Shown: positions 1,964 through 55,657 of the stretch, one piece after another
Position numbering within the stretch: position 1 is the first letter of the stretch
How the letters are laid out: each line of letters starts with the position of its first letter
Virus record (IMG/VR): IMGVR_UViG_3300048590_000292
Span: 4,743-68,742 of that record
Reading direction: 5' to 3' (one strand)
DNA length: 64,000 bases
From: a virus
Notes under the pieces: generated by a model
Seen by the model: only the letters and a program-made list of their open reading frames with translations
Databases searched by the model: none
Told to the model about the DNA's origin: nothing
Made by a program: the position numbers and the translations under genes

Positions 1964-1998
1964 GCCCCGCCCGATGGAAATTGTGGCGGGATTTTTTT
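1964..1998 (+). terminator. Rho-independent terminator
   Basis: ccccgcc...ggcgggg stem followed by a T-run. Confidence 0.55.
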
Positions 1999-2028
1999 GA
2001 AACGATTATTCACTAAACGGAGTATAAA

Positions 2029-2910
2029 ATGAAATGCTACTATCACAGTAAAGACCTTGACGGGTTCGCTTCCGGGGCAATTATGCGCCGAAAATTCCCA
2101 ACAGCCGAATTAATAGGTTACGATTACGGGCAACCCTTTGAAATGAACGTCGGAGAAAAAATAATAATGGCAGACGTTTCTTTGCCTATGCCAACCATGC
2201 GCCGGGTAGCGCATGCATCTAACGGGTTTACATGGATCGATCACCATATTTCCGCAATAAACGAATACATGGAAATGGTTGGCGATAATCTCGGATTTTT
2301 GGACGCAATACTTGACCCGACAATTTCCGCATGTGAGGGCACATGGAAGGCGTTATTCCCAGATGAGGAAATGCCTAAGGCCGTTGAACTTTTGGGGAAA
2401 TATGACACATGGCGCGGCAACGGTACGCCTGAATGGGAAAATGAAATATTGCCGTTTCAATACGGGATGCGGCTTATTTGTAACTCACTTGACACGTTCC
2501 CGCCTGGATTAGTAATACCCGATCCTGATGATGCCGATTATTACGACAGACACGAAAGGGCTGTTGAAAGCATTATCGAAAAAGGGAAAACGGTACTTGC
2601 GTACCAGCGCTCCCAAAACGAGATATTTTGCAAAAGCGCGTTTGAGGCATATTTTGAAGGATTGCGGGCAATTTGCCTAAACCTACCCGGCGCAAGTTCG
2701 ACGACCTTTGATAGCGTTTATGACCCCGAAAAGCACGACATTATTGTATCGTTTTCGATAAAAAAAGACGGCACTACTTTTTCGTTACGCACCACGAAAG
2801 AAGATGTTGATTGCTCGGAAATTGCAAAACGATTCGGAGGTGGCGGTCACCGAAAAGCAGCCGGGTTCAAAGTTCCTGAACTAAGCCCTGAAAAATATTT
2901 GAAGCAATAA
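2029..2910 (+). CDS. DHH/DHHA1 family phosphoesterase (nanoRNase-like)
   Basis: HSKDLDG, D, WIDHH motifs and C-terminal SLR...GGGGHRKAAG. Confidence 0.9.
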   Translation: MKCYYHSKDLDGFASGAIMRRKFPTAELIGYDYGQPFEMNVGEKIIMADVSLPMPTMRRVAHASNGFTWIDHHISAINEYMEMVGDNLGFLDAILDPTISACEGTWKALFPDEEMPKAVELLGKYDTWRGNGTPEWENEILPFQYGMRLICNSLDTFPPGLVIPDPDDADYYDRHERAVESIIEKGKTVLAYQRSQNEIFCKSAFEAYFEGLRAICLNLPGASSTTFDSVYDPEKHDIIVSFSIKKDGTTFSLRTTKEDVDCSEIAKRFGGGGHRKAAGFKVPELSPEKYLKQ

Positions 2911-3105: not shown

Positions 3106-3417
3106 ATGAATACTTCACTTGACAAGTACCTGACAACAGAACCGGATAACGGGTATGATTCTTGGTTTGAATCGGTATGCTTAGGATTAAGCAAGCCTGT
3201 TTGTGAGTGGGATGACGCGGCAAATAATGATCCGTGTTGCTCCGAAGAATTTACCAAACTTTGCGAGTTGATGTTTAACGCCGGGACACATCACGCAGTA
3301 GCGGCGATGCTGGTAAATCAGTCGTTTAACTTCTTTGAAAAATGGATCCGGGTTAACGATAATGCGCCGGGGTTTGATCCAAAGGATTATAGCGATATGC
3401 TGCAAATTCCCCGGTAG
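3106..3417 (+). CDS. Hypothetical phage protein
   Basis: ORF downstream of the leader RNA. Confidence 0.6.
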   Translation: MNTSLDKYLTTEPDNGYDSWFESVCLGLSKPVCEWDDAANNDPCCSEEFTKLCELMFNAGTHHAVAAMLVNQSFNFFEKWIRVNDNAPGFDPKDYSDMLQIPR

Positions 3418-3945: not shown

Positions 3946-5361
3946 ATGGCCAACGAATCAAAAAGTAAAAGTAACCGTGAACACGCTTTCGACTTTGAAT
4001 TAGCCGAAATTGTAGGAATTGAAAAGGCGATTCTGCTAAAAAACTTCCATCACTGGACATCCGAAAACCAGCGGCGCAAAATAATATCGCAATTCAAAAA
4101 CGGTATTTGGTGGACCGCCGAAAGCCTTACAAGCCTTGCAAAAAAGTACAAGTATATGAAGCGGGGGAACCTTAGCCGGTGGCTCCATCAACTTAGTGAG
4201 GAAAAATGGCTACTAATGCACGCAGGGGAAAATGGGAACAATTATTATGCACCAGGGCCGGTATTTTTGGCATGGGATACCGACCAAGATTGGCAAAAGG
4301 TGTTTCAAATTGAAACAGGTAATTGTTTCACAGTGAAACAGAGAAAACCAAAAAAGGTGTTTCAAAATGAAATAGATGCTGTTTCAAATCGAAACAATGG
4401 GGTATTTCAAATTGAGATGACAAATAATGATATTGAAAAGAATATTGAAATAAAAGATGTTGAAATAATTACGCCGCAAGCGGCTTTCATCACTACCCAC
4501 ACACCAACAGAATTTGAAAATGTCCGAATCGTACAAGGCGAAACGTTCGACTTAGAAGAAAAATCCTTAGAACCAATCACCCCGGCGGCGCGCGAACTTT
4601 CCGAACTGGAAGCGCAAAGCGTAGACGAGGCCCGGCAGGTATTCGCGGCCATTGAAGGCAAAAAGGCCCGCACCACAAAGCCCGACACGCCCGACGTAAC
4701 AGCCGAAACAATCGCCTACCTGAACGAAAAAGCCGGAACATCATTTAGGGCAACGTCGAAAGCAACTAAGGCCCAAATAAACGCCCGCGCAAAAGAGGGT
4801 TACACGGTTGAGGACTTCAAAGCGGTTATTGACTTCAAAACTGCCGAATGGGGAACAGACGCGAAAATGATGCAATACCTATGCCCCGAAACACTTTTCC
4901 GGGCAAGCAAATTTGAGGGGTATTTGCAGGCAGCAAAACGGGCCGGAATGATCGGCGGACAACCCGCCACCCGCTATTCCCTCGAAGATCGACCACAGGC
5001 AACAACGCCCGAACAAATGAAGGTCGAACTAAGCCGGTTTTACAACGCCCACAAAGACGAATCCCTACTCGACCAGGTGCAACGCTTCGCCGAAACCAAC
5101 TACACGCCGGAGCGCCTACGCTCCATCGTGATCGACTTTTGCGGGAACCAGGTCGCCAAGCGCCGCGAAGGGGAAACGTTCGGGCAACATCATGCCGCCC
5201 TGGGGTTGTGGTTGAAACGGCAAAAGCAATTCGATACCCACAACACCACTACGACACAGCACACCGCCGGGCCGCAGCCGCAAGCGCCGCTTAGATCGGC
5301 AGCGCCGGTTAACTACTCACAGCAAGGGCCGCAACTGCGGTCGGAGCAAAAAGCAGAATGA
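3946..5361 (+). CDS. Phage replication initiator (N-terminal wHTH-like, conserved phage C-terminal domain)
   Basis: YLNEKAGTSFR...ARAKEGYTVEDFKAVID.K..EW...YL.PETLF..SKFEGYL; internal iterons. Confidence 0.8.
   Translation: MANESKSKSNREHAFDFELAEIVGIEKAILLKNFHHWTSENQRRKIISQFKNGIWWTAESLTSLAKKYKYMKRGNLSRWLHQLSEEKWLLMHAGENGNNYYAPGPVFLAWDTDQDWQKVFQIETGNCFTVKQRKPKKVFQNEIDAVSNRNNGVFQIEMTNNDIEKNIEIKDVEIITPQAAFITTHTPTEFENVRIVQGETFDLEEKSLEPITPAARELSELEAQSVDEARQVFAAIEGKKARTTKPDTPDVTAETIAYLNEKAGTSFRATSKATKAQINARAKEGYTVEDFKAVIDFKTAEWGTDAKMMQYLCPETLFRASKFEGYLQAAKRAGMIGGQPATRYSLEDRPQATTPEQMKVELSRFYNAHKDESLLDQVQRFAETNYTPERLRSIVIDFCGNQVAKRREGETFGQHHAALGLWLKRQKQFDTHNTTTTQHTAGPQPQAPLRSAAPVNYSQQGPQLRSEQKAE
4301..4470. 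repeat. Replication origin: five palindromic iterons plus an AT-rich tract
   Basis: TGTTTCA-N3-TGAAACA variants at 4301, 4324, 4358, 4380 and 4403, then AT-rich 4420-4470. Confidence 0.75.
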
Positions 5362-14771: not shown

Positions 14772-14977
14772 AACTTCCCGGACTTGTCCAATTTCGCAAA
14801 TGCAGCCTCACCGACAAAGAACTTGCCGAGAAGGTCGCCGAGGGTTTGAATAAAATGTACACCGAACCCGTATCCGTACCATCCCGCCATATCCCGGCGC
14901 AGCCAAACAACGATTTTGATTTGATCGTTGCTGAGTTGATTGTCCGGTTTTTGGAAGCAAAAAACATTGAAGTATGA
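14768..14977 (+). CDS. Hypothetical protein
   Basis: ATGA-coupled. Confidence 0.55.
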   Translation: MKLPGLVQFRKCSLTDKELAEKVAEGLNKMYTEPVSVPSRHIPAQPNNDFDLIVAELIVRFLEAKNIEV

Positions 14978-15555
14978 CCACACCAAGCCCAATCTACATA
15001 GGCTGCGACCCCGCTTTCCGCATTCGCGGGTTTGTTGTTTGTATCCTGAACATGGAAAGCAAACAGGCCGAATTTCTGACGACGGATTACGACCGTTACC
15101 GGGATTGGATCACAGGCCCGGATGCGCCGGAAATCGGCGGGGCGTGCATCGAAAACAGTGCTTTGCAGAACAAACTATTCTACACGCACAAAAGCCAGAC
15201 CGGGGCGCTACTTACGGCGCAGCAGGCGAAATTCATCCCCGGCGCTAAGAAGTTGAATACTGCCGAACTTTGTAGCGCCGCTATGGCAGTAGGCAAAAAT
15301 CAGGCGATCAGCGAAATGTCGTACCGGGTAACGGTAATGAAATACGGCGTTGCGCGGGTGTTTGGCGTTTCGCCGTTGGAAAAAGGCAAGAAGATCACAG
15401 ACCCGCGAATGTTCGCCGGTTATGTTAACTCATACGGCGTCACGCTCGTAAACTACGGCGGTTCGCAGGATGAAAGGGACGCTTTCAAAATGGCAGTCAT
15501 GGCCGTAGATAAGGCCAAAATGGCGGCACGGTACATAAAACAGACAACGCCATGA
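14974..15555 (+). CDS. RuvC-like (RNase H fold) resolvase/nuclease
   Basis: IYIGCDP...G, IEN, and C-terminal QDERDA acidic motifs. Confidence 0.55.
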   Translation: MTTPSPIYIGCDPAFRIRGFVVCILNMESKQAEFLTTDYDRYRDWITGPDAPEIGGACIENSALQNKLFYTHKSQTGALLTAQQAKFIPGAKKLNTAELCSAAMAVGKNQAISEMSYRVTVMKYGVARVFGVSPLEKGKKITDPRMFAGYVNSYGVTLVNYGGSQDERDAFKMAVMAVDKAKMAARYIKQTTP

Positions 15556-15752
15556 CCTACAAAGCACTTAGATACACATCGGGAGAATGGGTCGTAATAT
15601 TCGACGACTTCGGCCCGTCCGAAATATTGACAACCGGAATACCTGCTCTTATGTCGGAGGATACGACGATGGAAATCCTTAGGGGGTTTTACGATCAAAT
15701 AGACTTTTCCGGCATCGAACTTGTCACACTGGAAATAAATGTCAGACCTTAA
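15552..15752 (+). CDS. Hypothetical protein
   Basis: ATGA-coupled. Confidence 0.55.
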   Translation: MTYKALRYTSGEWVVIFDDFGPSEILTTGIPALMSEDTTMEILRGFYDQIDFSGIELVTLEINVRP

Positions 15753-16161
15753 ACTAACCTACTTTGGCCGCGTCACGCCGGAAGGGGAAATTAAACTCCC
15801 CGGCGCTAAGATGCGAAAAGAGGCGACAGCGTTCGCGGGTAAGGATATTGAAGTGACGGTGCAACGGAAAAAGAAACACCGAAGCGACCCGCAAAACCGC
15901 TACTATTGGGGCGTTGTGGTAGAGATGATCCGGGCCGGGATGAAAGACATGGGAGACGCGGTTACGCCTGACCAAGTGCATGAGTTTTTGAAATGGCGGT
16001 TTCTGCGAACGCAAAAGGTAGATGAATCAACAGGCGAGGTTTTGTATGAATACGCAGGCAGTAGCCGGAAATTAGGTACTATTGCTTTTGCTGAATATAT
16101 TGAAAGTTGCTGCAAATTTGCCGGGGAATTTTTAGGGGTTGAAATCCCGTTACCGATGTAA
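15739..16161 (+). CDS. ninB: NinB-like recombination protein
   Basis: RSDPQNRYYW...HEFLK..FL...SSRKL...F.EYIE motif. Confidence 0.7.
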   Translation: MSDLKLTYFGRVTPEGEIKLPGAKMRKEATAFAGKDIEVTVQRKKKHRSDPQNRYYWGVVVEMIRAGMKDMGDAVTPDQVHEFLKWRFLRTQKVDESTGEVLYEYAGSSRKLGTIAFAEYIESCCKFAGEFLGVEIPLPM

Positions 16162-16175
16162 AATAGAAATGCGAA

Positions 16176-16349
16176 ATGGCAAGAATAACGGTATCATATA
16201 TGCGAGAACTTGAGCAAAAGTTACGCCGCGAAGAAATCACATACTCTCGCATGGTTGAATTACTGAATGAGAGGGCAATGGAAAGCAAAGTAGGAAAGAT
16301 AACCCGCACCGGCGGCACGTCAATGGTTGACCCCATCGGCGGCACGTAG
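16176..16349 (+). CDS. Small hypothetical protein (57 aa) running into the first attC-like site
   Basis: MARITVSYMRELEQKLRREE...; not in the ORF track. Confidence 0.5.
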   Translation: MARITVSYMRELEQKLRREEITYSRMVELLNERAMESKVGKITRTGGTSMVDPIGGT

Positions 16350-16476
16350 CGGCGCATTCGCGGCAAAGGTTGTGCGTGATTTATGCCGCCGGTTGTGGGG
16401 TTTAACGGTCTGCACTGCCGAAGTGCTACGTTTAGGCGGCATGAACGGCAGTGCAGGGTTCTAAGAATTTGAAAAT

Positions 16477-16728
16477 ATGACAATACTTGATCGAATAAAA
16501 CTTTGGCAAACAGCATCCCTTTCACTTGTCTGTGATGACCTTTTTGAGATGGGCTATTGCTGTACAATTTCCTATGAACTTTTGCCGAACGGAAAGTGGA
16601 TTTCAATCTCTATTGAAAAGGACGGTAAAAAATGGGGCGGCATTGGTGGAAGTCGCCTTGAAGTAGCGCGTAATAGGTTGGTTGAATGGGCTGACCGCCA
16701 AGGAATACGCGATTTTATAATTTCTTAG
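16477..16728 (+). CDS. Cassette 1 hypothetical protein (83 aa)
   Basis: Stop TAG lies inside the inverse core TTCTTAGAAC; AT-rich. Confidence 0.7.
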   Translation: MTILDRIKLWQTASLSLVCDDLFEMGYCCTISYELLPNGKWISISIEKDGKKWGGIGGSRLEVARNRLVEWADRQGIRDFIIS

Positions 16729-16818
16729 AACTGATGCATGAACGCCGTGCAAGGTTTACGCCGCATGGGCGGCCATGCGGTGTTAGCCGATTTTGTACCC
16801 TTATTTCGTATTATTAGT

Positions 16819-17151
16819 ATGGAAAATCTTGACTTAAAAATTCGGGCTTGGTTGGTTGAGGAAGGTTATTTATTTCCTGAAACCGACGATGAAATAGCAA
16901 AAGCGATTGCAGAATGCGAAGCAAATCCACCTGAAATTCCGGCGCATTTAGACAACCCTCTTTTATTTTTACAGGATGCAAAAATTAGGTTTGGGTTGGA
17001 GGCACAGGGGCATATTCCTACAATCGAAGCAATGCTGAAAGAGTGGGGAGGGTCATCAAAATACGCATGGGAGGCAATCGGGAAAAAAATTGGATGGTGT
17101 CCGTTTTCCGCTTGCGCCTCTTATTTATCTTATATTTTACGTCACGGCTAA
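16819..17151 (+). CDS. Cassette 2 hypothetical protein (110 aa, MENLDLKIRAW...)
   Basis: Stop TAA lies inside the inverse core CGGCTAAC. Confidence 0.7.
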   Translation: MENLDLKIRAWLVEEGYLFPETDDEIAKAIAECEANPPEIPAHLDNPLLFLQDAKIRFGLEAQGHIPTIEAMLKEWGGSSKYAWEAIGKKIGWCPFSACASYLSYILRHG

Positions 17152-17399
17152 CTCAAAGTTTCCCGCCACGGCGCGGTTAGCGTCGATGTTAGGGAAACAA
17201 CAGTTATCTTTGTTCCGCATTTCGTTTTGTTCCCGGCGCGTGAAACTAACCAGGCAAGGATGGGAAAGCGCGCCGGGTTTTAAGATATTCTTGGAATTTA
17301 TCATAGGCCGCTACCGACGAAATGCCGGGGCGGTTTTTTTATTCGCACAATATTCGTACATTTGTAGCGCCGGGTATCATTAGGCCCGGTTTTTGCAAT

Positions 17400-27652: not shown

Positions 27653-29311
27653 ATGGCAATTACACTCGCATCATCTCCGACCACATCGCAACCTATCCCG
27701 ATTTCAGACTGCCTACGATGGGTATTTGAGCCGGATAGCGCCGACGTGATAACAACGCCGGGCGTCATTGCCCAAATAGTGGTGACGTTTCCCGGATCAC
27801 CGACAGACCCCGGCAACGGTACGGAGTTCGTGATGTGGGGGTACACGTTCACAACGCAAAGCGGTTCGGATTTCACGGCAACCTCTTTCGATGTTGTAGT
27901 CGGCAATAAGTTGTCAACAATGAACAACTTTGCCGGGATGGTTGCAAGTAACTTCTTTTTTGCCCGCGCCGTTTCGGTTGAGGTCGGGGTAAGTACGGTG
28001 ACATTGACCTGGAATGAATGCGGAGAGCAGGAAAATTTCGGCGCAACGCAAATGTTTTTCGATAACATTGAAGGTAGTGCGATAACGTCGGCGGTGGCCA
28101 CAAATGGCACGACGCCTGTCTACGTGGACGGTTATCGCATCTCATACCGTTTGCGCAGGACTGACGTAAACGACGAGGGTAATAGCGGGTATGTGACGAA
28201 CTTTGAAGGCATGGAGCCTAACAAGGGCTGTACAACTGTTGACGACGCCGCGTTTGACGCAATGCCGACCGTTCGCCGGTTGCTGAAAACACCAATACCC
28301 GATCTTGACCTTACACACCCGACGGTAGAATACGACGGCATTATCCAATATTTCAGCCTGATATACGGGTGGATTTACCGGGATGGAAACTGCCAAAGCC
28401 AAAGCGGATTGTTTGAGTTTACCGGGCGCTCGTTTATTTGGAACGCCTACTTTCAGGCCAAAGACGTGTACCGGACGCGAAAGTATTGGCCGGGAGCAAG
28501 CGGCGGGCTACCGCCGGGGCAATCATACGTGAAATTCCTAACCACTTCGCCCGACAAAATGCGGGTGTTTGTGGATTCAAAGTGTTGGCTTTGGTACATG
28601 GTCAACGGGGCGATACAATCCTGGACAAACTTACGCCTGAATATTGCCGCAACGAAAAAAGATGGTAGCGGTACACTTACAAGTGTTGTCGTTTCGGATA
28701 GCGGGTACGGTATCAATGCCGTGAACGTTTCCCCGGATTACATTATCTCGCTTGGTATGTCGGGCGTGACGGCTGACACGTTGAGCCATTACACGGTTAA
28801 GATAATGACCCAAAATAGTGGCAGTGAGTTCGATGTGACGCAAATAACAGAGGACAAGACGTTCTACGTTATGACCGCCTGCGATACGGACAAGTTTACC
28901 GATCTTTATTTCCTTACCCCGATTGGCGGCATAGGCACTATCCCGGTTCAAATAATCGAGAGCAACGTTAACCAGGCAGGCGACGAAATACTTTTAGACG
29001 TACCTTGCACAGCAAGCCGGGAAGATAAGGCCCGGTATGGTGGCCGGACGCTTTCAAATATACGTTCTTACGAATCATTCACTTTCCGATCAATTGACAA
29101 CGGCAACGTGACAGAGTTTTTCCGCGACCTGAAATTAAGCCCGCAACGGTGGGTGAAAATGGATGCGGAGGACGGTTCTGTGGTTGCCCGAAAATTAATC
29201 ATTGAACCGGGCGGGGTGAAAATATATGAGGATGGCCCGATTGTTACCGTAGAGGTAACCGGGTATTTGGGCGACATTATTATTCAATCTGGAACAGAAC
29301 CGGAAATATGA
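27653..29311 (+). CDS. Tail tip protein (distal tail-like)
   Basis: Directly after tape measure; beta-rich; LYFLTPIGG and SPQRW motifs. Confidence 0.6.
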   Translation: MAITLASSPTTSQPIPISDCLRWVFEPDSADVITTPGVIAQIVVTFPGSPTDPGNGTEFVMWGYTFTTQSGSDFTATSFDVVVGNKLSTMNNFAGMVASNFFFARAVSVEVGVSTVTLTWNECGEQENFGATQMFFDNIEGSAITSAVATNGTTPVYVDGYRISYRLRRTDVNDEGNSGYVTNFEGMEPNKGCTTVDDAAFDAMPTVRRLLKTPIPDLDLTHPTVEYDGIIQYFSLIYGWIYRDGNCQSQSGLFEFTGRSFIWNAYFQAKDVYRTRKYWPGASGGLPPGQSYVKFLTTSPDKMRVFVDSKCWLWYMVNGAIQSWTNLRLNIAATKKDGSGTLTSVVVSDSGYGINAVNVSPDYIISLGMSGVTADTLSHYTVKIMTQNSGSEFDVTQITEDKTFYVMTACDTDKFTDLYFLTPIGGIGTIPVQIIESNVNQAGDEILLDVPCTASREDKARYGGRTLSNIRSYESFTFRSIDNGNVTEFFRDLKLSPQRWVKMDAEDGSVVARKLIIEPGGVKIYEDGPIVTVEVTGYLGDIIIQSGTEPEI

Positions 29312-29682
29312 AAAAGCACGACTTTTTAAAAGCATTACTGGCATCGCTCGCTGTTGTTTGGGTTTTATTCGGCAACTGCAAAAAAGAAACGCCCGACCCG
29401 ATCATTGGATCATGGAAAGTTGCCGCGCCGTTTATTCAACAGCCTGGGTACTGGTTTTACGAGGATGGTATGATGTGCCGGTATGAAGATCGGTGTTTGC
29501 CGGATAGCGTTGATTGCACCTACACGTACACAAAACACGACAACACGCTACACATTTCCGGCTATGCCGACATTGTGACATGGGAAATAGAGTGGATCAG
29601 TGACGACTTTATCCGGGTACGGGTTCCGCAAACCGAACACCTCACCAATATCATTTTTCTGGAGCGCGACACATGGGAATAG
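29308..29682 (+). CDS. Lipoprotein, lipocalin-like
   Basis: Signal with FGN|C then KKE; IIGSWKV (GxW) motif. Confidence 0.65.
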   Translation: MKKHDFLKALLASLAVVWVLFGNCKKETPDPIIGSWKVAAPFIQQPGYWFYEDGMMCRYEDRCLPDSVDCTYTYTKHDNTLHISGYADIVTWEIEWISDDFIRVRVPQTEHLTNIIFLERDTWE

Positions 29683-32369
29683 TTACCCGCATACTTGTCC
29701 GCAATCTGTCGGAAGCAACGTCGGTTCGATTGAACGGCGCAACGGAAGCCTACATGGATACGCCCGAAGGTTTCCGCATTCCTATGTCGAAGGACGTTGA
29801 AAAGTTGTCCAACACGAACAAGATAAAGGTTGAGGGAGCATTGCGAACGTCTGTTGACCAAACGGAGGTCAATAACGCAATATTGGTAGACTTCTTTACC
29901 CCGTTGACTGTTGACAACCGGCGCAAATGGTTGGACGTATTGGTTACGGTGGATGAAGTGCCGGCACAATTTACGCGGATGTATGTTTCGGAAAAGAACG
30001 ATGACAGTGGCACATGGTCGGTTGAGTTCGCTTTACCCGCCGATCATTGGGTGGAACTGGCATCTCAAAAAAACCTGAATACAATTGATTTCGGGTCTTA
30101 CTTCCTGACTAAAGACAATGTGATTAGCACGTGGGCCGCGCCGAAATATGACGGCGATTACACGCCAACGGTTGAGGATGGTACGGGGTGGAACGGCGCG
30201 TATTGGTGGCCTGTTGTGGATTTCGGCAATTGGGTAGATCAACTCATTCCAGCGCAGAACACAACCGCGCCGGTTAAAATGTTGGCCGTTGAAGATTTGC
30301 GCCCGTTCGTTAATTTCGTCTACCTGTTGAAACGTGGTTTTTGTGAAATAGGCTGGACATTGGGCGGGCTTATCCTGCAAACAGAATGGGCGCTACGCCT
30401 ATGGGTATACCTGCTCAAAGAGCAGTATTACGACGGGTCAAATGAGTATGGGGCCGGGTATGAATACGGGCGCAATGGCCGGGTAATAGGTCGCCTGTTG
30501 GATGCAGACGAAGTATTGAACACAGTTAACGAGCCAATCACGTTTGACACTGTTGAATTTTCGTTAGGCACCAATGCACTGCAATACCAGGCGGGGCCGA
30601 AATGGTTGGCCGGTATCCAAAACAACTACCCATTTTCGGCAAAGTTTCATTTTCAGTTTCAATTCCACCTCGAAAACGGACACGCTGACGCTACAAAGGT
30701 GGGGTTTGTTATTGCAGAGGTAACCGGATCGGATAACGACGACTTTACCGGCCTGTTCTTTTCTACCCCGGTTGAGTTTGATATAGGAGCCGGAACGACC
30801 GACTTTATTTCTTTTGAGGAAACAATAATTTTGGAGCCGGGGCAAAAGGGGTTTTTGCGGCATCTATTCGGAATCGAATCTGGCGACATTATCAAAAAGG
30901 GGTTTTCCTGCCGTATTGAATCGGCAAACGAATCTTTGAGCCGCTTTGACTTTGTGGATGTTCGCACAATTATGCGTGACGATTTCAATTTGCTGGACGC
31001 GCTAAAGTCGTTTGTTCAACTCATTAACGGGCGAATTGAAACCGACTACGGAACAAAAACAATAAACGTTTACCCAGAACGTACATCGGAGGTTTACACG
31101 GAACGTGTAGCCGGGTTTATTCAGGATGAAGAAAATTCCGAAGATGTAAGCCCGTACATTTTGCCAGGCAGCATAAAGTTGAAGTTCATACGGCCTGACC
31201 TGAAACGGTACACCCGCCTTTCCTTTGCGGACGCCTCGGACGCCTACATTGATAGCCTGAATTTGCTGGAGCCGCTACACAGCCGGAAAATAAATAACGG
31301 CGATGATTTGCCTAACGAAACCGACGAACAACAAAACCCGATATTTGAACCGACCGCAGAGGGGCAACCCGTAGACCTGAAAAAGGCCGGACGCAGCCCG
31401 TCGCCGTATTTGCCCCGCCTTTGGGACAACACCGAATTGCAACGCTCCTTTGCCATTGGCCCGCGCATTGTGTACGCCTTTGGCAGCGTTAGCCAGGTAA
31501 ATGAAACGCCTGTCGGGTCGTTCGACACAATGGCAGAACTATATTTAGACGGATATGAGGAAGCCGACCGCATTGACGCATTTGGGTACGCTACACAGTT
31601 ACCGACATGGGAAATAGACCCGACGCCTACCATTAACGGCAGCGTGGTTTTTGGCCGGACGGCGTTCGACTTGTTCGCTAATTTCTACCTGGGACTTACT
31701 AATGACAACCGGGGCGGTGTTGACGTTGACCTACTGCAGCGCGTTTCAATGGCGCAATATAATCAGTACAACTTTCGCCGGTTGTTCAACTTCACGTATG
31801 AGGGCCGGACAATACGCATACCAATGACGGCAATCCGGGACTTTTCGCCCGACATACCTACTCCGGTTAAGTATTTCGGTTCACCTGTTGAGACCGGGTG
31901 CTGTGATTTGCCGTGTTCGTGCCGGTTCACCGAATGCGACTACTACCAGGATTTTGGCGTGTTCATGCGGCAAACAACGCTCGACGGACTTAATATTTCG
32001 TCTTTTAAGGTTGACAACGTGGAACAATTGACCGCGCCGGTTGAGTTCGGGCAATTGAATATAATCAGCATTGGAGGGAAGCAGTACGTTACCAACTTGG
32101 TAGACACGCTCAACGCAATCGGCGTGCCGTACTTCTTTTTCGACTACTCTACCCGCGCACACGCGGCAAAGGGGTTACGGTTTTTCAAAATCAAACGTCC
32201 GGCCTGCCAGACTTTCGAGATCATTATTTCCGACGTTGGCGACGAGGTGTACCGCTACACAGAATCGGCGCAGCAAGAACAATGGTTTGCCGGGTCATGG
32301 GGCGCAATCGGGTACGCGCCGGAAACATTTACCGCGCCGGATAATTGTGTAACAACCGTTGAATATTGA
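29673..32369 (+). CDS. Tail tip/hub protein (898 aa)
   Basis: Large beta-rich late protein; WPVVDFG and LRPFV motifs; Cys-rich C-terminal domain. Confidence 0.6.
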   Translation: MGIVTRILVRNLSEATSVRLNGATEAYMDTPEGFRIPMSKDVEKLSNTNKIKVEGALRTSVDQTEVNNAILVDFFTPLTVDNRRKWLDVLVTVDEVPAQFTRMYVSEKNDDSGTWSVEFALPADHWVELASQKNLNTIDFGSYFLTKDNVISTWAAPKYDGDYTPTVEDGTGWNGAYWWPVVDFGNWVDQLIPAQNTTAPVKMLAVEDLRPFVNFVYLLKRGFCEIGWTLGGLILQTEWALRLWVYLLKEQYYDGSNEYGAGYEYGRNGRVIGRLLDADEVLNTVNEPITFDTVEFSLGTNALQYQAGPKWLAGIQNNYPFSAKFHFQFQFHLENGHADATKVGFVIAEVTGSDNDDFTGLFFSTPVEFDIGAGTTDFISFEETIILEPGQKGFLRHLFGIESGDIIKKGFSCRIESANESLSRFDFVDVRTIMRDDFNLLDALKSFVQLINGRIETDYGTKTINVYPERTSEVYTERVAGFIQDEENSEDVSPYILPGSIKLKFIRPDLKRYTRLSFADASDAYIDSLNLLEPLHSRKINNGDDLPNETDEQQNPIFEPTAEGQPVDLKKAGRSPSPYLPRLWDNTELQRSFAIGPRIVYAFGSVSQVNETPVGSFDTMAELYLDGYEEADRIDAFGYATQLPTWEIDPTPTINGSVVFGRTAFDLFANFYLGLTNDNRGGVDVDLLQRVSMAQYNQYNFRRLFNFTYEGRTIRIPMTAIRDFSPDIPTPVKYFGSPVETGCCDLPCSCRFTECDYYQDFGVFMRQTTLDGLNISSFKVDNVEQLTAPVEFGQLNIISIGGKQYVTNLVDTLNAIGVPYFFFDYSTRAHAAKGLRFFKIKRPACQTFEIIISDVGDEVYRYTESAQQEQWFAGSWGAIGYAPETFTAPDNCVTTVEY

Positions 32370-37032: not shown

Positions 37033-37332
37033 ATGGCAAAGAAGTATATAATTGATCCGAACTATCTGGCACGACACCCGCGCTCAATGACGCTAATCCG
37101 CGTTAAGGGGCAGGCGTCGCGCCGGGTAGCAATCGGTGAAACCGACATTACTATTCCTGCCGGTATTGGCGGGCCGGAGCGCACATTGAGCCTACCGGCA
37201 CCGACACAGTACGACTTGAAAGTGTTGTACGATGCCGGAACGAAATACGTGCTTTGCATCGACGAACCGGACGAGGCAATCGAACCGACGCCGGAAATTA
37301 AGAAATGGAGCAAGAAAAAAGACAGTGAATGA
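37033..37332 (+). CDS. Hypothetical late protein
   Basis: ORF between tail tube and portal. Confidence 0.6.
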   Translation: MAKKYIIDPNYLARHPRSMTLIRVKGQASRRVAIGETDITIPAGIGGPERTLSLPAPTQYDLKVLYDAGTKYVLCIDEPDEAIEPTPEIKKWSKKKDSE

Positions 37333-38714
37333 GCAACGTAAACGGATGCTGCGATGACAATAGCCCTACCGTTTTGCCGTCGCCTAAAGAGGAGATGCGC
37401 AAGCGTAAGGCCGCACGTATGCCCGTTTTGTTTGAACTTGAAAACCCTATTCCGCAGGAAGTAGCCGACTCAAAGGAACTTTCGGAAACTATTGAAAAGT
37501 ATAAATTTGTTCCGTACGCCGGACACACGAACGGCAGCGGACATAGTACGCTCGCTTGGTATTTGATGCTGTCGAAACTCTCCCCTACAAACGGGGCAGT
37601 GATCGACAAGTTGACAAAATACGCTGTTGGTGGACGCGCTGTTTTTGTCCGGTCTGAAAACCCGGACTACGACATAGGTGAGGAAACAAACCCGCTTTCA
37701 CGGCAGGAAAAAGTAAACTACCAAGAGGCCATAACATCGTTCATTGAATTTGAGGGAGGGGTTCGCAACTATCACAGGCTAATAACGGCATCGCTGAAAG
37801 CAACCGGAAACGCCTGGGTAGAAATGTCGGTAATGACGGTCAACGGCCAAACGCGGGTACACCTACGGAACCAACGGCAAACACAGACAATGTATCTGCG
37901 TACAAAGGCTGATGAAATGCGGATGGCCGCTATTTCTCCGATTTGGACGGATGAATATTTGCGAAAAAACCCGCCGCGTATCATACCGCTTTACCCGAAT
38001 TTCACGGTAGAAAACGGCGCAAAAAAAACGCTGTTTCACCTGAAAAACGGGGATAATAACTGGTATGGCAGGCCGGACAGCCAAAGCGCCGATCTGTATA
38101 AGTACCGCGAAGTGCAGGACGCTATCTACGTTGTGAAACAGGCAGCCAACAACTTTACAGGGCAGATTGTATTCGAGGTAGAGGACGACGGGCAAGACCC
38201 GGCAATCAACGAGAATCAGGCATGGGAATCAGGGTTTAATTCTTTCGCTGACCGGATGACCGAAAACTTTACCCAACGCGGCAAAGACCCGTTAAGCGTG
38301 TTTGTCACATCTCGACCGTTTGGGGCAAAACCGATGTTTGTTTTTCAGGTAGCGCCTAACACAAACGAGAAGTGGTACAAAGAAACCGGGGCAATGTCCG
38401 AAAGTTACATTTTGGGCGCACACGGGGCAACGCTTCGCTTCATGGGAAAAGATGCGGCCAACGGGTTTTCTACCGACGCTTTTGTATCTGACTACGTGAT
38501 GAATATGGAGCCGGTTATAAATGACATACGCACGACAGTAATGGTTTTTTCAAACTCTATTCTGTCGGTTGCCTGGGAGGCTCTTGGGATGCAGCAAATG
38601 AACGACATAAGCCTTTCGTTCCAAACGCCTATACAATCAGCAATTGACGAATACAAATCGGTAAACGAAAAGAAGGAAGCAGAAAAACAAACACCGCGAA
38701 TTGAAACCGTATAA
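37329..38714 (+). CDS. Portal protein
   Basis: SPTNGAVID, GNAWVE, WYGRPD, ILGAH motifs; 461 aa. Confidence 0.8.
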   Translation: MSNVNGCCDDNSPTVLPSPKEEMRKRKAARMPVLFELENPIPQEVADSKELSETIEKYKFVPYAGHTNGSGHSTLAWYLMLSKLSPTNGAVIDKLTKYAVGGRAVFVRSENPDYDIGEETNPLSRQEKVNYQEAITSFIEFEGGVRNYHRLITASLKATGNAWVEMSVMTVNGQTRVHLRNQRQTQTMYLRTKADEMRMAAISPIWTDEYLRKNPPRIIPLYPNFTVENGAKKTLFHLKNGDNNWYGRPDSQSADLYKYREVQDAIYVVKQAANNFTGQIVFEVEDDGQDPAINENQAWESGFNSFADRMTENFTQRGKDPLSVFVTSRPFGAKPMFVFQVAPNTNEKWYKETGAMSESYILGAHGATLRFMGKDAANGFSTDAFVSDYVMNMEPVINDIRTTVMVFSNSILSVAWEALGMQQMNDISLSFQTPIQSAIDEYKSVNEKKEAEKQTPRIETV

Positions 38715-39392
38715 ATGGCAAATCTAATCACGGCATACGAGGTAAAGCGGTATTCACCAGCGGGCAGAAATTACCCGGAAGTGAATATCTGCGAAGCGAT
38801 ACCACAGGTGGAGGAGGGTATCGGGTATAAGTGCCTTGGTGAAGATTTGTACGAATGGCTCATTACGAAACTGACTGAATACCCGGCAACGGTGCAGGAA
38901 TATAACCCGACAATCGAATACGACGAAGATGAATATGTAGTGCGACATGGTTGCCTATTTGTTTCCGAAGTCGGTTGTAACCGCACCGATCCGGTTGAAG
39001 TGGAAAACGATTGGGCAGCGGTGGACAAGTTCACCGACGCCTGCGCAAACACCCTTTGGACGCGCTATTTACGCCGAATTTTGGCATTGCGCGTGTACGA
39101 AACGGTAATGTTATACGACACGCAACAAAGCGGTGCAGGTGGCGTAGTTGTCTCCCTCGGAGACGGGTACAACACAGGACACCGGGCCGCTTCAAAGTAC
39201 GAAATAGCAGACCGGGCGAAACGATTGGATGAAGATGCGAATCTGACCGTTCAAAATATGTACCGCTGGTTTGAGAAACAACTCGAAGCCAAAACGTGTA
39301 CGACAATGCCGATCAATTCGGCGCAGGCGTGTTGGCAAAGGAACTGCGAACAACCCCGCAAAGGAATACGAAGGTTTGCCTTCAAATATTGA
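38715..39392 (+). CDS. Head-tail adaptor protein
   Basis: LIT..EVK...LGEDLY pattern directly after portal; inserted EYNPT..Y...EYV module. Confidence 0.6.
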   Translation: MANLITAYEVKRYSPAGRNYPEVNICEAIPQVEEGIGYKCLGEDLYEWLITKLTEYPATVQEYNPTIEYDEDEYVVRHGCLFVSEVGCNRTDPVEVENDWAAVDKFTDACANTLWTRYLRRILALRVYETVMLYDTQQSGAGGVVVSLGDGYNTGHRAASKYEIADRAKRLDEDANLTVQNMYRWFEKQLEAKTCTTMPINSAQACWQRNCEQPRKGIRRFAFKY

Positions 39393-55554: not shown

Positions 55555-55584
55555 GGCCGCACGGGACTACCGCGCAGGCGGTTG

Positions 55585-55657
55585 TTGCGAGGACGGGACT
55601 TGAACCCGCGTCTAAAGGTTATGAGCCTTTCGAGTTAGCCAACTTCTCTACCGCGCG
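55585..55657 (-). tRNA. tRNA-Met(CAT), initiator-like; CCA not encoded
   Basis: Cloverleaf CGCGCGG..GAGA..ACTC..AAAGG-CTCATAA-CCTTT..GCGGG-TTCAAGT-CCCGT..CCTCGCA-A; TATATTTG promoter immediately upstream. Confidence 0.9.

Follow-up and report, generated by a model that had tools for sequence, protein, structure and literature searches.

A probable mobile array of hairpin-bounded gene cassettes in a phage genome without an integrase

Results

Two small genes set among hairpins

We describe here a presumed gene-cassette array in the viral record IMGVR_UViG_3300048590_000292, a sequence of 68,742 bp with direct terminal repeats that is rated complete. The window, as we call the whole stretch of DNA analysed, is 64,000 nt long and corresponds to bases 4743-68742 of this record; nearly all of its genes are on the + strand. 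The array lies between a gene of the NinB/Orf type and the packaging genes and comprises two small open reading frames (ORFs), ORF83 and ORF110, together with three hairpins running from AAC to GTT (sites 2, 3 and 4) and, upstream of these, a degenerate segment (site 1) (Table 1). An earlier note, made from the sequence alone, had taken the region for a cassette array of the integron type with a crossover at G|TT. The folded AAC...GTT sites, the single-gene units with complementary ends and the fixed outer bracket on which this view rested have all been borne out, and the proposed crossover point has not.

Table 1 Features of the array and of the genes next to it (positions in the window; R1 is the covariance model described in the text)
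Feature	Position	Strand	Description
NinB/Orf-type recombination mediator	15739-16161		phrog_72, E 8.5e-17; directly adjoins the array
ORF 16176-16349	16176-16349	+	backbone ORF upstream of the array; left bracket in its 3' part
Left bracket AAAGATAAC	16295-16303	+	complementary to the right bracket, 17203-17211
Site 1	16301-16402	+	degenerate leader segment; not detectable as a member of the hairpin family
Hairpin site 2	16404-16460	+	57 nt, AAC...GTT; R1 57.2 bits, E 2.5e-14
Unit A	16461-16728	+	CTAAGAA..., ORF 16477-16728 (83 aa, ORF83), ...TTCTTAG; stop TAG inside the end core
Hairpin site 3	16729-16784	+	56 nt; R1 70.9 bits; predicted site of the cassette with ORF 16819-17151
Unit B	16785-17149	+	AGCCG..., ORF 16819-17151 (110 aa, ORF110), ...CGGCT
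Hairpin site 4	17150-17205	+	56 nt, subtype III (AACTC...CAGTT); R1 47 bits; terminal, backbone-linked
Right bracket GTTATCTTT	17203-17211	+	
DUF5681 protein	18418-18810		Pfam E 3.2e-14; packaging side of the array
Large terminase ORF (putative)	18788-20239		named from position and length

The sequences quoted in the earlier note are all present where it placed them. GTTCTAAGAA (16458-67) forms an inverted pair with TTCTTAGAAC (16722-31), which extends to 18 nt at 83%; GTTAGCCG (16782-89) pairs in the same way with CGGCTAAC (17145-52), and the outer AAAGATAAC (16295-303) with GTTATCTTT (17203-11). The 11-bp stem CTGCACTGCCG/CGGCAGTGCAG is perfect. By our own estimate, chance alone should give about 0.8 exact inverted 10-mers, 3 9-mers and 12 8-mers in a stretch of 1.27 kb. 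Each inverted pair is therefore weak when taken singly, significance coming from position and recurrence, and because such short pairs do not exceed chance in 1.27 kb, the test had to come from other genomes. The TAA stop codon of unit B spans a T plus the AA of the AAC core.

When the four sites were folded as DNA, none of 200 shuffles folded as well as site 2 (z -4.2) or site 3 (z -3.4), and 4 of 200 did as well as site 4 (z -2.5). The fold of site 1 was not significant (z -1.55, 17 of 200 shuffles as good). An inverted pair of 10 bp and a direct repeat of 17 nt are found in this segment, whose GTT-T end abuts the AAC of site 2. Less specific approaches were uninformative: a generic thermodynamic search returned 219 AAC...GTT hairpins genome-wide, and the raw count of anchored 9-mer inverted pairs was unspecific (66 for GTT against a median of 27 over all triplets).

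A hairpin family with a covarying stem

Loci of relatives were fetched through the neighbouring genes and compared by BLAST, and motif scans added more. Thirty-two hairpins from 12 of these loci could be aligned almost without gaps, with a mean column identity of 65%, and served to build a covariance model of the family (R1). The hairpins measure 50-59 nt (median 56) and share a plan of AAC, 4 nt, a 9-bp stem, about 26 nt, the other half of the stem, 3 nt and GTT. GTT is present in 32/32 and AAC in 31/32 (GAC in the other one), AAC/GTT pairs being kept; a central CG...TA is invariant or nearly so, and a T-A in mid-hairpin is conserved. The longer left arm reported for this window is general, with 4 nt on the AAC side facing 3 nt on the GTT side in 30/32 hairpins and 5 facing 3 in the two others. 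Paired cells made up 86.1% of the stem positions, as compared with 70.9% in shuffles (none of 500 reached the observed value) and 25-39% with a slid partner, and compensatory double changes were found in 7 of the 9 main-stem pairs.

Whether run on the 64-kb window or on the entire genome of 68.7 kb, R1 recognized sites 2, 3 and 4 and no others on the gene strand. The model discriminates between strands (about 70 bits for the gene strand vs about 19 bits for the opposite one), and its matches are always co-oriented with the genes. Sites 2, 3 and 4 thus belong to one family of hairpins (56-59 nt) with a covarying stem. Site 1, already described as degenerate, has a poor fold and gave no R1 match at E up to 1, so that of the four AAC-hairpin-GTT sites originally listed the last three stand and the first does not.

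Elsewhere, 115 family members were found in 45 other phage-type loci; R1 accounted for 36 other gene-strand copies in the first locus set and for 76 matches in 28 further IMG/VR loci. Individual sites recur with other neighbours. A copy of site 3 that is 96% identical is present in L001/L019, with two occurrences in L001, and in L011 and L012 copies of this site are found upstream, not downstream, of the ORF83 homologue. An 82% copy of site 4 follows an unrelated gene in L002, and unit A sits between other hairpins in L011 (99% amino acid identity) and in L012/L085 (72%). Among the genes carried by related arrays are those for DNA methylases (Dam-type and N6_N4) and for a helix-turn-helix protein. 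ORF83, ORF110 and ORF57 matched no family in Pfam, PHROGs or NCBIfam, and no relative of ORF110 was found in IMG/VR in the search for related loci.

Hits of the 17-nt and 18-nt motif scans were mostly due to chance, 20 of the 26 viral stretches and 45 of the 46 genome stretches being unrelated genes, and the metagenome scan returned only three stretches, one of them a contig already in the set. No hairpin was detected in L092 and L093, which are homologues of the L091 recombinase remnant described below, or within the 3.5 kb of L132. When 151 genomes from the phylum of a Balneola metagenome-assembled genome were scanned with R1, a single hairpin was found, with only 37 candidates scored per genome, so that absence is not shown. 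This lone family member (L097:10865-10921 in G042:C63, 36.6 bits) is on a bacterial chromosome of that phylum, between two minus-strand genes and outside any array; it adjoins genes that resemble type I restriction-modification genes, their functions being assigned by eye from the translations.

The L028 contig may hold two tandem arrays. The 3' end of a backbone-type gene (...GCGTTTTAAC) occurs in it twice, at 3260-3413 and 5100-5237, each time directly before a hairpin, and a single internal subtype III hairpin (4846-4903; the subtype is defined below) precedes the second copy.

Complementary unit ends and a distinct terminal hairpin

The ends of the units were compared by setting the 7 nt after each GTT against the 7 nt before the next AAC, the hairpins being placed by R1, which is blind to the flanks. 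At least 6 of the 7 positions were complementary in 22 of 27 pairs of consecutive hairpins, vs 75 of 1417 non-consecutive controls, and the two flanks of the same hairpin matched in only 2 of 38 cases. In a larger, deduplicated set, matched ends were found in 38 of 59 units vs 300 of 3422 controls. The reverse complementarity of unit start and unit end, first noted in this window, therefore extends across loci. The end cores form a limited set of variants (e.g. ATGCGGA, AGCCG, CTAAGAA) that are common to unrelated genes; the most frequent of them may resemble Xer-binding arms.

We considered the possibility that the pattern arose by chance or consists of simple intergenic terminator hairpins. 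Single inverted pairs of 8-10 nt are indeed expected in 1.27 kb according to our estimate, and site 1 folds no better than shuffles. Yet the 115 further members in 45 loci, the covariation and the end-matching statistics refute this explanation, and the lack of T-tracts also speaks against it. Sites 2-4 contain no promoter-like or terminator-like match.

Hairpins that start with AACTC and end with CAGTT or TAGTT were defined as subtype III. These were last in the array in 19 of 20 classifiable cases, vs 5 of 61 for other hairpins (Fisher 5e-13). Site 4 is of this subtype, and according to R1 no further hairpin follows it in the window. Being of the terminal subtype, it looks like a docking site. 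The outer pair AAAGATAAC/GTTATCTTT may represent what the empty docking site would look like, the cassettes having been inserted at its AAC.

Probable exchange at the AAC edge

To locate the exchange point, oriented loci were compared all against all by BLAST, and the ends of shared blocks were scored when they fell within 8 nt of a hairpin edge. Of 137 block ends on each side, 21 (left) and 26 (right) were near the AAC edge, vs 1 and 4 near the GTT edge, while only about 1.2% of positions lie that close (at most 8 nt) to any hairpin edge. After near-identical loci had been merged, the AAC edge was found in both partners for 7/34 left and 7/33 right ends and the GTT edge for none. With 14 block ends at the AAC edge and 0 at the GTT edge, the crossover at G|TT put forward in the earlier note is not supported. 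In blocks of at least 95% identity, 12 of 36 ends (our own count) were at the AAC edge, the blocks ending with ...TAACT or beginning with TAAC...; blocks of 95-100% identity reflect recent events. The contigs X1 and X2, described in the next section, agree with this rule.

Since block ends lie at the AAC edge, a cassette would consist of a hairpin and the downstream gene, an order opposite to that in integron cassettes. The usual mobile block thus appears to run from one AAC to the next. By the same rule, the cassette with ORF 16477-16728 would have site 2 as its site, and the terminal site would stay with the downstream block of backbone genes. An independent reassortment of hairpins and genes at both edges was also envisaged; this idea was dropped because the AAC edge dominates the block-end counts.

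The coding strand of the hairpins has a positive GC skew in 26/32 cases and folds more stably than the other strand in 29/32 (mean -13.3 vs -11.6 kcal/mol). In the attC sites of mobile integrons, it is the non-coding bottom strand that is purine-rich, more stable and recombined, the cut being in the AAC of that strand (as set out in the text we drew on from Nivina et al. 2016, PMC5027507). Set against this published polarity, the stability and G-richness of the coding strand suggest that the phage sites resemble attC with the genes in inverted orientation.

Swapped array content in a close relative

Natural variation at this locus was followed by aligning the contigs of four public runs to positions 15700-17700 of the window; as these are assemblies and not reads, they inform on presence only. 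Evidence was taken solely from the parts covered by contigs, and habitat labels were used for these four runs only. A contig of 2880 nt from a wastewater run (X1) matches 16227-16307 and 17149-17700 with few differences, and 541 other letters replace the 841 nt between 16307 and 17149. In this close relative, the content of the array has been swapped between the two outer brackets, as expected from the proposal that a fixed outer pair encloses the array. The backbone ORF at 16176-16349 runs through the AAAGATAAC core and stops 46 nt later, within the degenerate site 1; as the X1 relative differs after 16307, the C-terminus encoded by its version of this ORF would differ.

A second contig, from an activated-sludge run (X2), matches 16403-16746, i.e. 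hairpin 2 plus ORF83, with 4 differences, and differs on both sides. Hairpin 2 was found with other flanks in runs X4 and X6, and many short contigs contain hairpin 2 or hairpin 3 with other flanks, their loose ends starting at 16460/16461, 16729 or 16785. In X6, a joint that goes back from 16775 to 16452 was considered as a cassette circle. It was rejected as proof because phages of the L011 type have a type I hairpin upstream of ORF83 in linear arrangement.

Tyrosine recombinases in the phage and its relatives

A six-frame search of the complete 68,742-bp record with PF00589 detected no tyrosine recombinase, all control genomes being positive. The earlier remark that no integrase is in view therefore holds for the complete genome. 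In related viral records, most of which are fragments, PF00589 was found in 2/5, 0/5 and 2/26 (4/36 in total), and IntI was not found in any related record searched. The recombinases examined have about 390-400 residues, with Arm-DNA-bind_5 and SAM_5 domains. Their score against the integron-integrase model was 33.8 bits, for a cut-off of 265, and they are far below the curated cut-offs for XerC, XerD and integron integrase. No short Xer-like gene turned up in the records searched.

In two loci, a recombinase gene abuts a terminal subtype III hairpin. L133 encodes an intact recombinase of 402 aa (766-1974, +) next to a hairpin at 1973-2029 (-), and L091 a 5'-truncated remnant (1490-1990, +) next to a hairpin at 1989-2045 (-). 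In both, the recombinase stop codon falls within the TAAC core, as though the integrase gene itself had been joined at the site. This layout recalls intI beside attI; two cases are too few for a rule, however, and the enzymes may be lysogeny integrases. Our best guess is that a tyrosine recombinase of the host or of a co-infecting phage acts in trans.

Discussion

An array of two probable cassettes

What we observed at this locus and in its relatives (a family of sites with a covarying stem, matched unit ends, breakpoints at the AAC edge, a terminal subtype and, in a close relative, an array whose content has been replaced) is best described, in our view, by a mobile array of two cassettes that are exchanged at or next to AAC, the last hairpin probably serving as docking site. 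We assign to this reading a probability of about 0.7. Each cassette would be made of one hairpin site of 56-59 nt and the small gene downstream of it, and the array would occupy a slot for accessory genes, flanked by the NinB/Orf-like gene and by the packaging genes, in a complete phage genome devoid of integrase. The unit that follows a site would start with GTT and a core X, and end with the reverse complement of this core and then AAC. With such ends, the site of a circularised cassette would be closed by a perfect stem of its own, 8-15 bp long. Related phages would exchange cassettes by recombination at or next to AAC, which on the coding strand is the 5' edge of the site, and the last hairpin (17150-17205), of a distinct subtype, would stay with the backbone and probably act as a dock for insertion, as attI does in an integron. 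The reaction is presumed to be site-specific and to take place on folded single-stranded DNA, through a tyrosine recombinase acting in trans, for which a host enzyme of the Xer type and the integrase of a related temperate phage are the candidates. The cassettes would pass through a circular form.

Several observations weigh against this two-cassette reading. Well-matched ends were lacking in 21 of the 59 units, some of these reflecting hairpins missed by R1, such as an 85-nt site in L028. The block shared by L002 and L028 begins exactly at GTT, and a 96.6% identical block shared by L028 (from 5264) and L110 (from 102) begins in mid-hairpin, at the conserved apical TAG. These two exceptions imply that the exchange point is not always the AAC edge, and the second one could point to a further exchange position or to homologous crossing-over within the site. 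All the sequence from the runs consists of assembled contigs rather than reads, and no circular cassette was seen in these contigs. No recombinase could be tied to the sites: tyrosine recombinases are present in only 4/36 related viral records, and those found look like ordinary lysogeny integrases. The assignment to Bacteroidota hosts rests on promoter-like motifs recognized by eye, on the domain types of the integrases and on one hairpin in 1 of 151 genomes, all sampled from a single phylum.

Comparison with integrons and their cassettes

The resemblance to integrons is extensive. The sites are imperfect hairpins of about 59 nt bounded by AAC and GTT, which are the only invariant triplets, and the stop codon is often inside the core, as in attC sites. 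The units contain mostly a single gene and have one orientation, a fixed site is present at one end of the array, and the start of a unit is complementary to its end, as expected from a circular intermediate. The lack of a nearby integrase is the defining feature of attC-site clusters without an integron integrase (CALINs), and the DNA methylases in the cargo of related arrays add to this likeness. The region could therefore be an ordinary CALIN, captured from and mobilised by a bacterial integron integrase, with a crossover at G|TT and cassettes formed by a gene and the attC site downstream. CALINs have in fact been reported in 17 phages, including virulent ones, and IntI1 recombined 5 of the 6 phage sites tested, as described in the part of Qi et al. 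2023 (PMC9892861) on which we rely; Polaribacter phage P12002L is among the phages of that study. The AAC and GTT triplets, a length close to 59 nt and stop codons in the core are all typical of attC. Under the definition of a CALIN by at least two attC sites and no integrase, the window has three sites and no PF00589 match, the status of these sites as attC being disputed.

The genome of P12002L (L098, NC_028924) was inspected by eye. At about 29150-32300 and 37185-38965 (-), its methyltransferase genes are separated by AAC...GTT hairpins of about 50-57 nt, and the ends of the units match (e.g. GTTAGGCAC / GTGCCTAAC). The architecture, in which AAC and GTT enclose a hairpin of about 50 nt, with matched ends and methylase cargo, is the same as in the window, and it speaks for the CALIN explanation. 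R1 found nothing significant in P12002L (best E 1.7), so that the sites are alike in plan and not in sequence.

We nevertheless regard an ordinary CALIN as quite improbable. The deduplicated breakpoints, 14 vs 0, place the exchange, in terms of the coding strand, at the AAC (5') edge, whereas attC is crossed over at its 3' edge, and it is the coding strand that is G-rich (26/32) and more stable (29/32), the opposite of the attC sites of mobile integrons in the account cited above (PMC5027507). The internal loop of the phage sites has 4 and 3 nt (30/32; 5 and 3 in 2), and not the unpaired central spacer of 5-6 nt per arm described for canonical attC in the passages of PMC5027507 that we cite. 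In the same passages, canonical sites have 2-3 extrahelical bases, spaced by 6 bp, close to the L box on one of the arms; the 9-bp main stem of the phage sites has neither one-sided bulges nor an extrahelical G and T, and its one-base arm asymmetry (4 vs 3 nt) is on the arm opposite to these canonical bases. The phage sites are almost fixed in length, and the site of docking type is at the downstream end of the array. Two other features are equivocal: a length of 50-59 nt (median 56) is at or just under the lower bound of the canonical 57-141 bp, and as regards the canonical RYYYAAC / GTTRRRY boxes, a cassette's own ends are complementary in 38 of 59 units, while the cores of the window, GTTCTAA, GTTAGCC and GTTATCT, do not fit GTTRRRY. 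Furthermore, the hairpin downstream of one and the same gene differs between the window, L011 and L085, and the motif was in no array of a bacterial chromosome, only 1 of 46 pattern matches on genome contigs being genuine, on a 1.4-kb contig. Classical integrons are themselves nearly absent from Bacteroidetes, according to the statement we take from IntegronFinder 2.0 (PMC9024848). A complete integron has an IntI gene and attI beside the array, and the present record contains no tyrosine recombinase.

Phage attC clusters are thus already in print, and the array described here belongs to a widespread phage system that fails several of the tests for canonical attC. The departure of its sites from canonical attC fits a separate system in Bacteroidota-type phages, as had been suggested earlier, with the host assignment limited as said above. 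The AAC-edge polarity, the terminal subtype and the spread of the family were not described in the full-text literature that we searched.

Possible recombination without a dedicated enzyme

Recombination between repeats that flank modules has been proposed for T4-type phages. In a similar way, the hairpins could be regulatory or RNA-level repeats, shuffled during co-infection by homologous or microhomology recombination in the absence of a dedicated enzyme. A family with 65% column identity could support crossovers over short homologies, a recombination mediator of the NinB/Orf type (phrog_72, E 8.5e-17) adjoins the array, one crossover lies in the apex of a hairpin (L028 vs L110), and most complete relatives have no recombinase. 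Such repeats would be expected to spread the breakpoints over 56 nt, yet these cluster within a few bases of AAC, and exchanges join hairpins of different subtypes that have little in common beyond AACT. Neither matched unit ends nor a dedicated terminal subtype is expected from passive repeats, and a regulatory role finds no echo in sites 2-4, where promoter-like and terminator-like matches were not found. This explanation appears unlikely to us.

Other recombinases and a possible mirror-image integron

Other tyrosine recombinases than IntI offer partial parallels to the two-cassette array with an enzyme acting in trans. As described, the rAID-1 clusters of gut Bacteroidales are arrays with integron-like intergenic repeats and a recombinase of the XerD family (Ross et al. 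2019, 10.1101/471110). The likeness, which concerns a gene array of Bacteroidota lineage, repetitive intergenic sequences and a recombinase other than IntI, is one of description only; in that description, rAID-1 clusters are chromosomal, headed by a recombinase and made of immunity genes, whereas the phage array has no recombinase. An XerD-like head and co-directional low-GC genes would mark such a cluster: no recombinase is present here, and the GC content of the array region is 0.45, near the 0.43-0.55 of the whole window. One other kind of tyrosine recombinase is mentioned as acting on both single- and double-stranded sites (Nivina et al., PMC5027507).

Filamentous phages integrate at dif by presenting single-stranded hairpin substrates to Xer recombinases. 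There too, a folded strand offers a duplex to which the recombinase binds, and a host enzyme acts in trans for a phage that has none; the difference is that the whole phage genome is integrated into the chromosome and no cassettes are shuffled.

These comparisons lead to a broader proposal, namely that Bacteroidota-type phages carry a gene-capture platform of their own, a mirror-image integron with the site upstream of the gene, the dock at the downstream end of the array and the coding strand folded, run by a recombinase other than IntI, e.g. an Xer-type enzyme of the host or a phage integrase supplied in trans. We put this forward tentatively, at a little short of even odds. Integrons are regarded as belonging to bacteria and are known above all for accumulating antibiotic-resistance genes. 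The same logic of folded sites, self-matching cassettes and a fixed dock would be at work in lytic-type phages of wastewater and sludge, with reversed polarity and no integron integrase. If this is true, even strictly lytic phages that have no recombinase would trade accessory genes cassette by cassette during co-infection; the methylases carried by related arrays could counter restriction. Identification of the enzyme would explain the precise exchange of small accessory genes among these phages and would add a second, independent case in which folded single-stranded DNA is recombined. With the site model and the AAC-edge rule, this cassette system can be searched for and tested.

Additional observations

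The right bracket and the G that follows it read TATCTTTG, which resembles the -7 promoter box of Bacteroidota. Similar TTATCTTTG boxes, identified by eye, precede the downstream genes in L028, L030, L091 and L133.

Just downstream of the array, a 241-aa protein (17620-18345, +) has a HxK...GSxN pattern, seen by eye, that is reminiscent of nucleases of the phospholipase D type. It had only weak PHROG matches (one of them annotated as endonuclease, E 0.0027), no match in Pfam or NCBIfam, and sequence comparison with solved structures yielded nothing below E 0.2. On the other side, a 193-aa protein (14974-15555, +) displays by eye an N-terminal IGxDP-like motif resembling that of resolvases of the RuvC type; no match was found in Pfam, PHROG or NCBIfam. 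A similar gene is present in L092 (3502-4011, -).

A distant blastn search of INPHARED phages with positions 15000-18800 gave no match. Rfam over the window returned nothing but a tRNA; a tRNA-Met gene (anticodon CAT) is located at 55584-55657 (-), near the few minus-strand ORFs of this phage.

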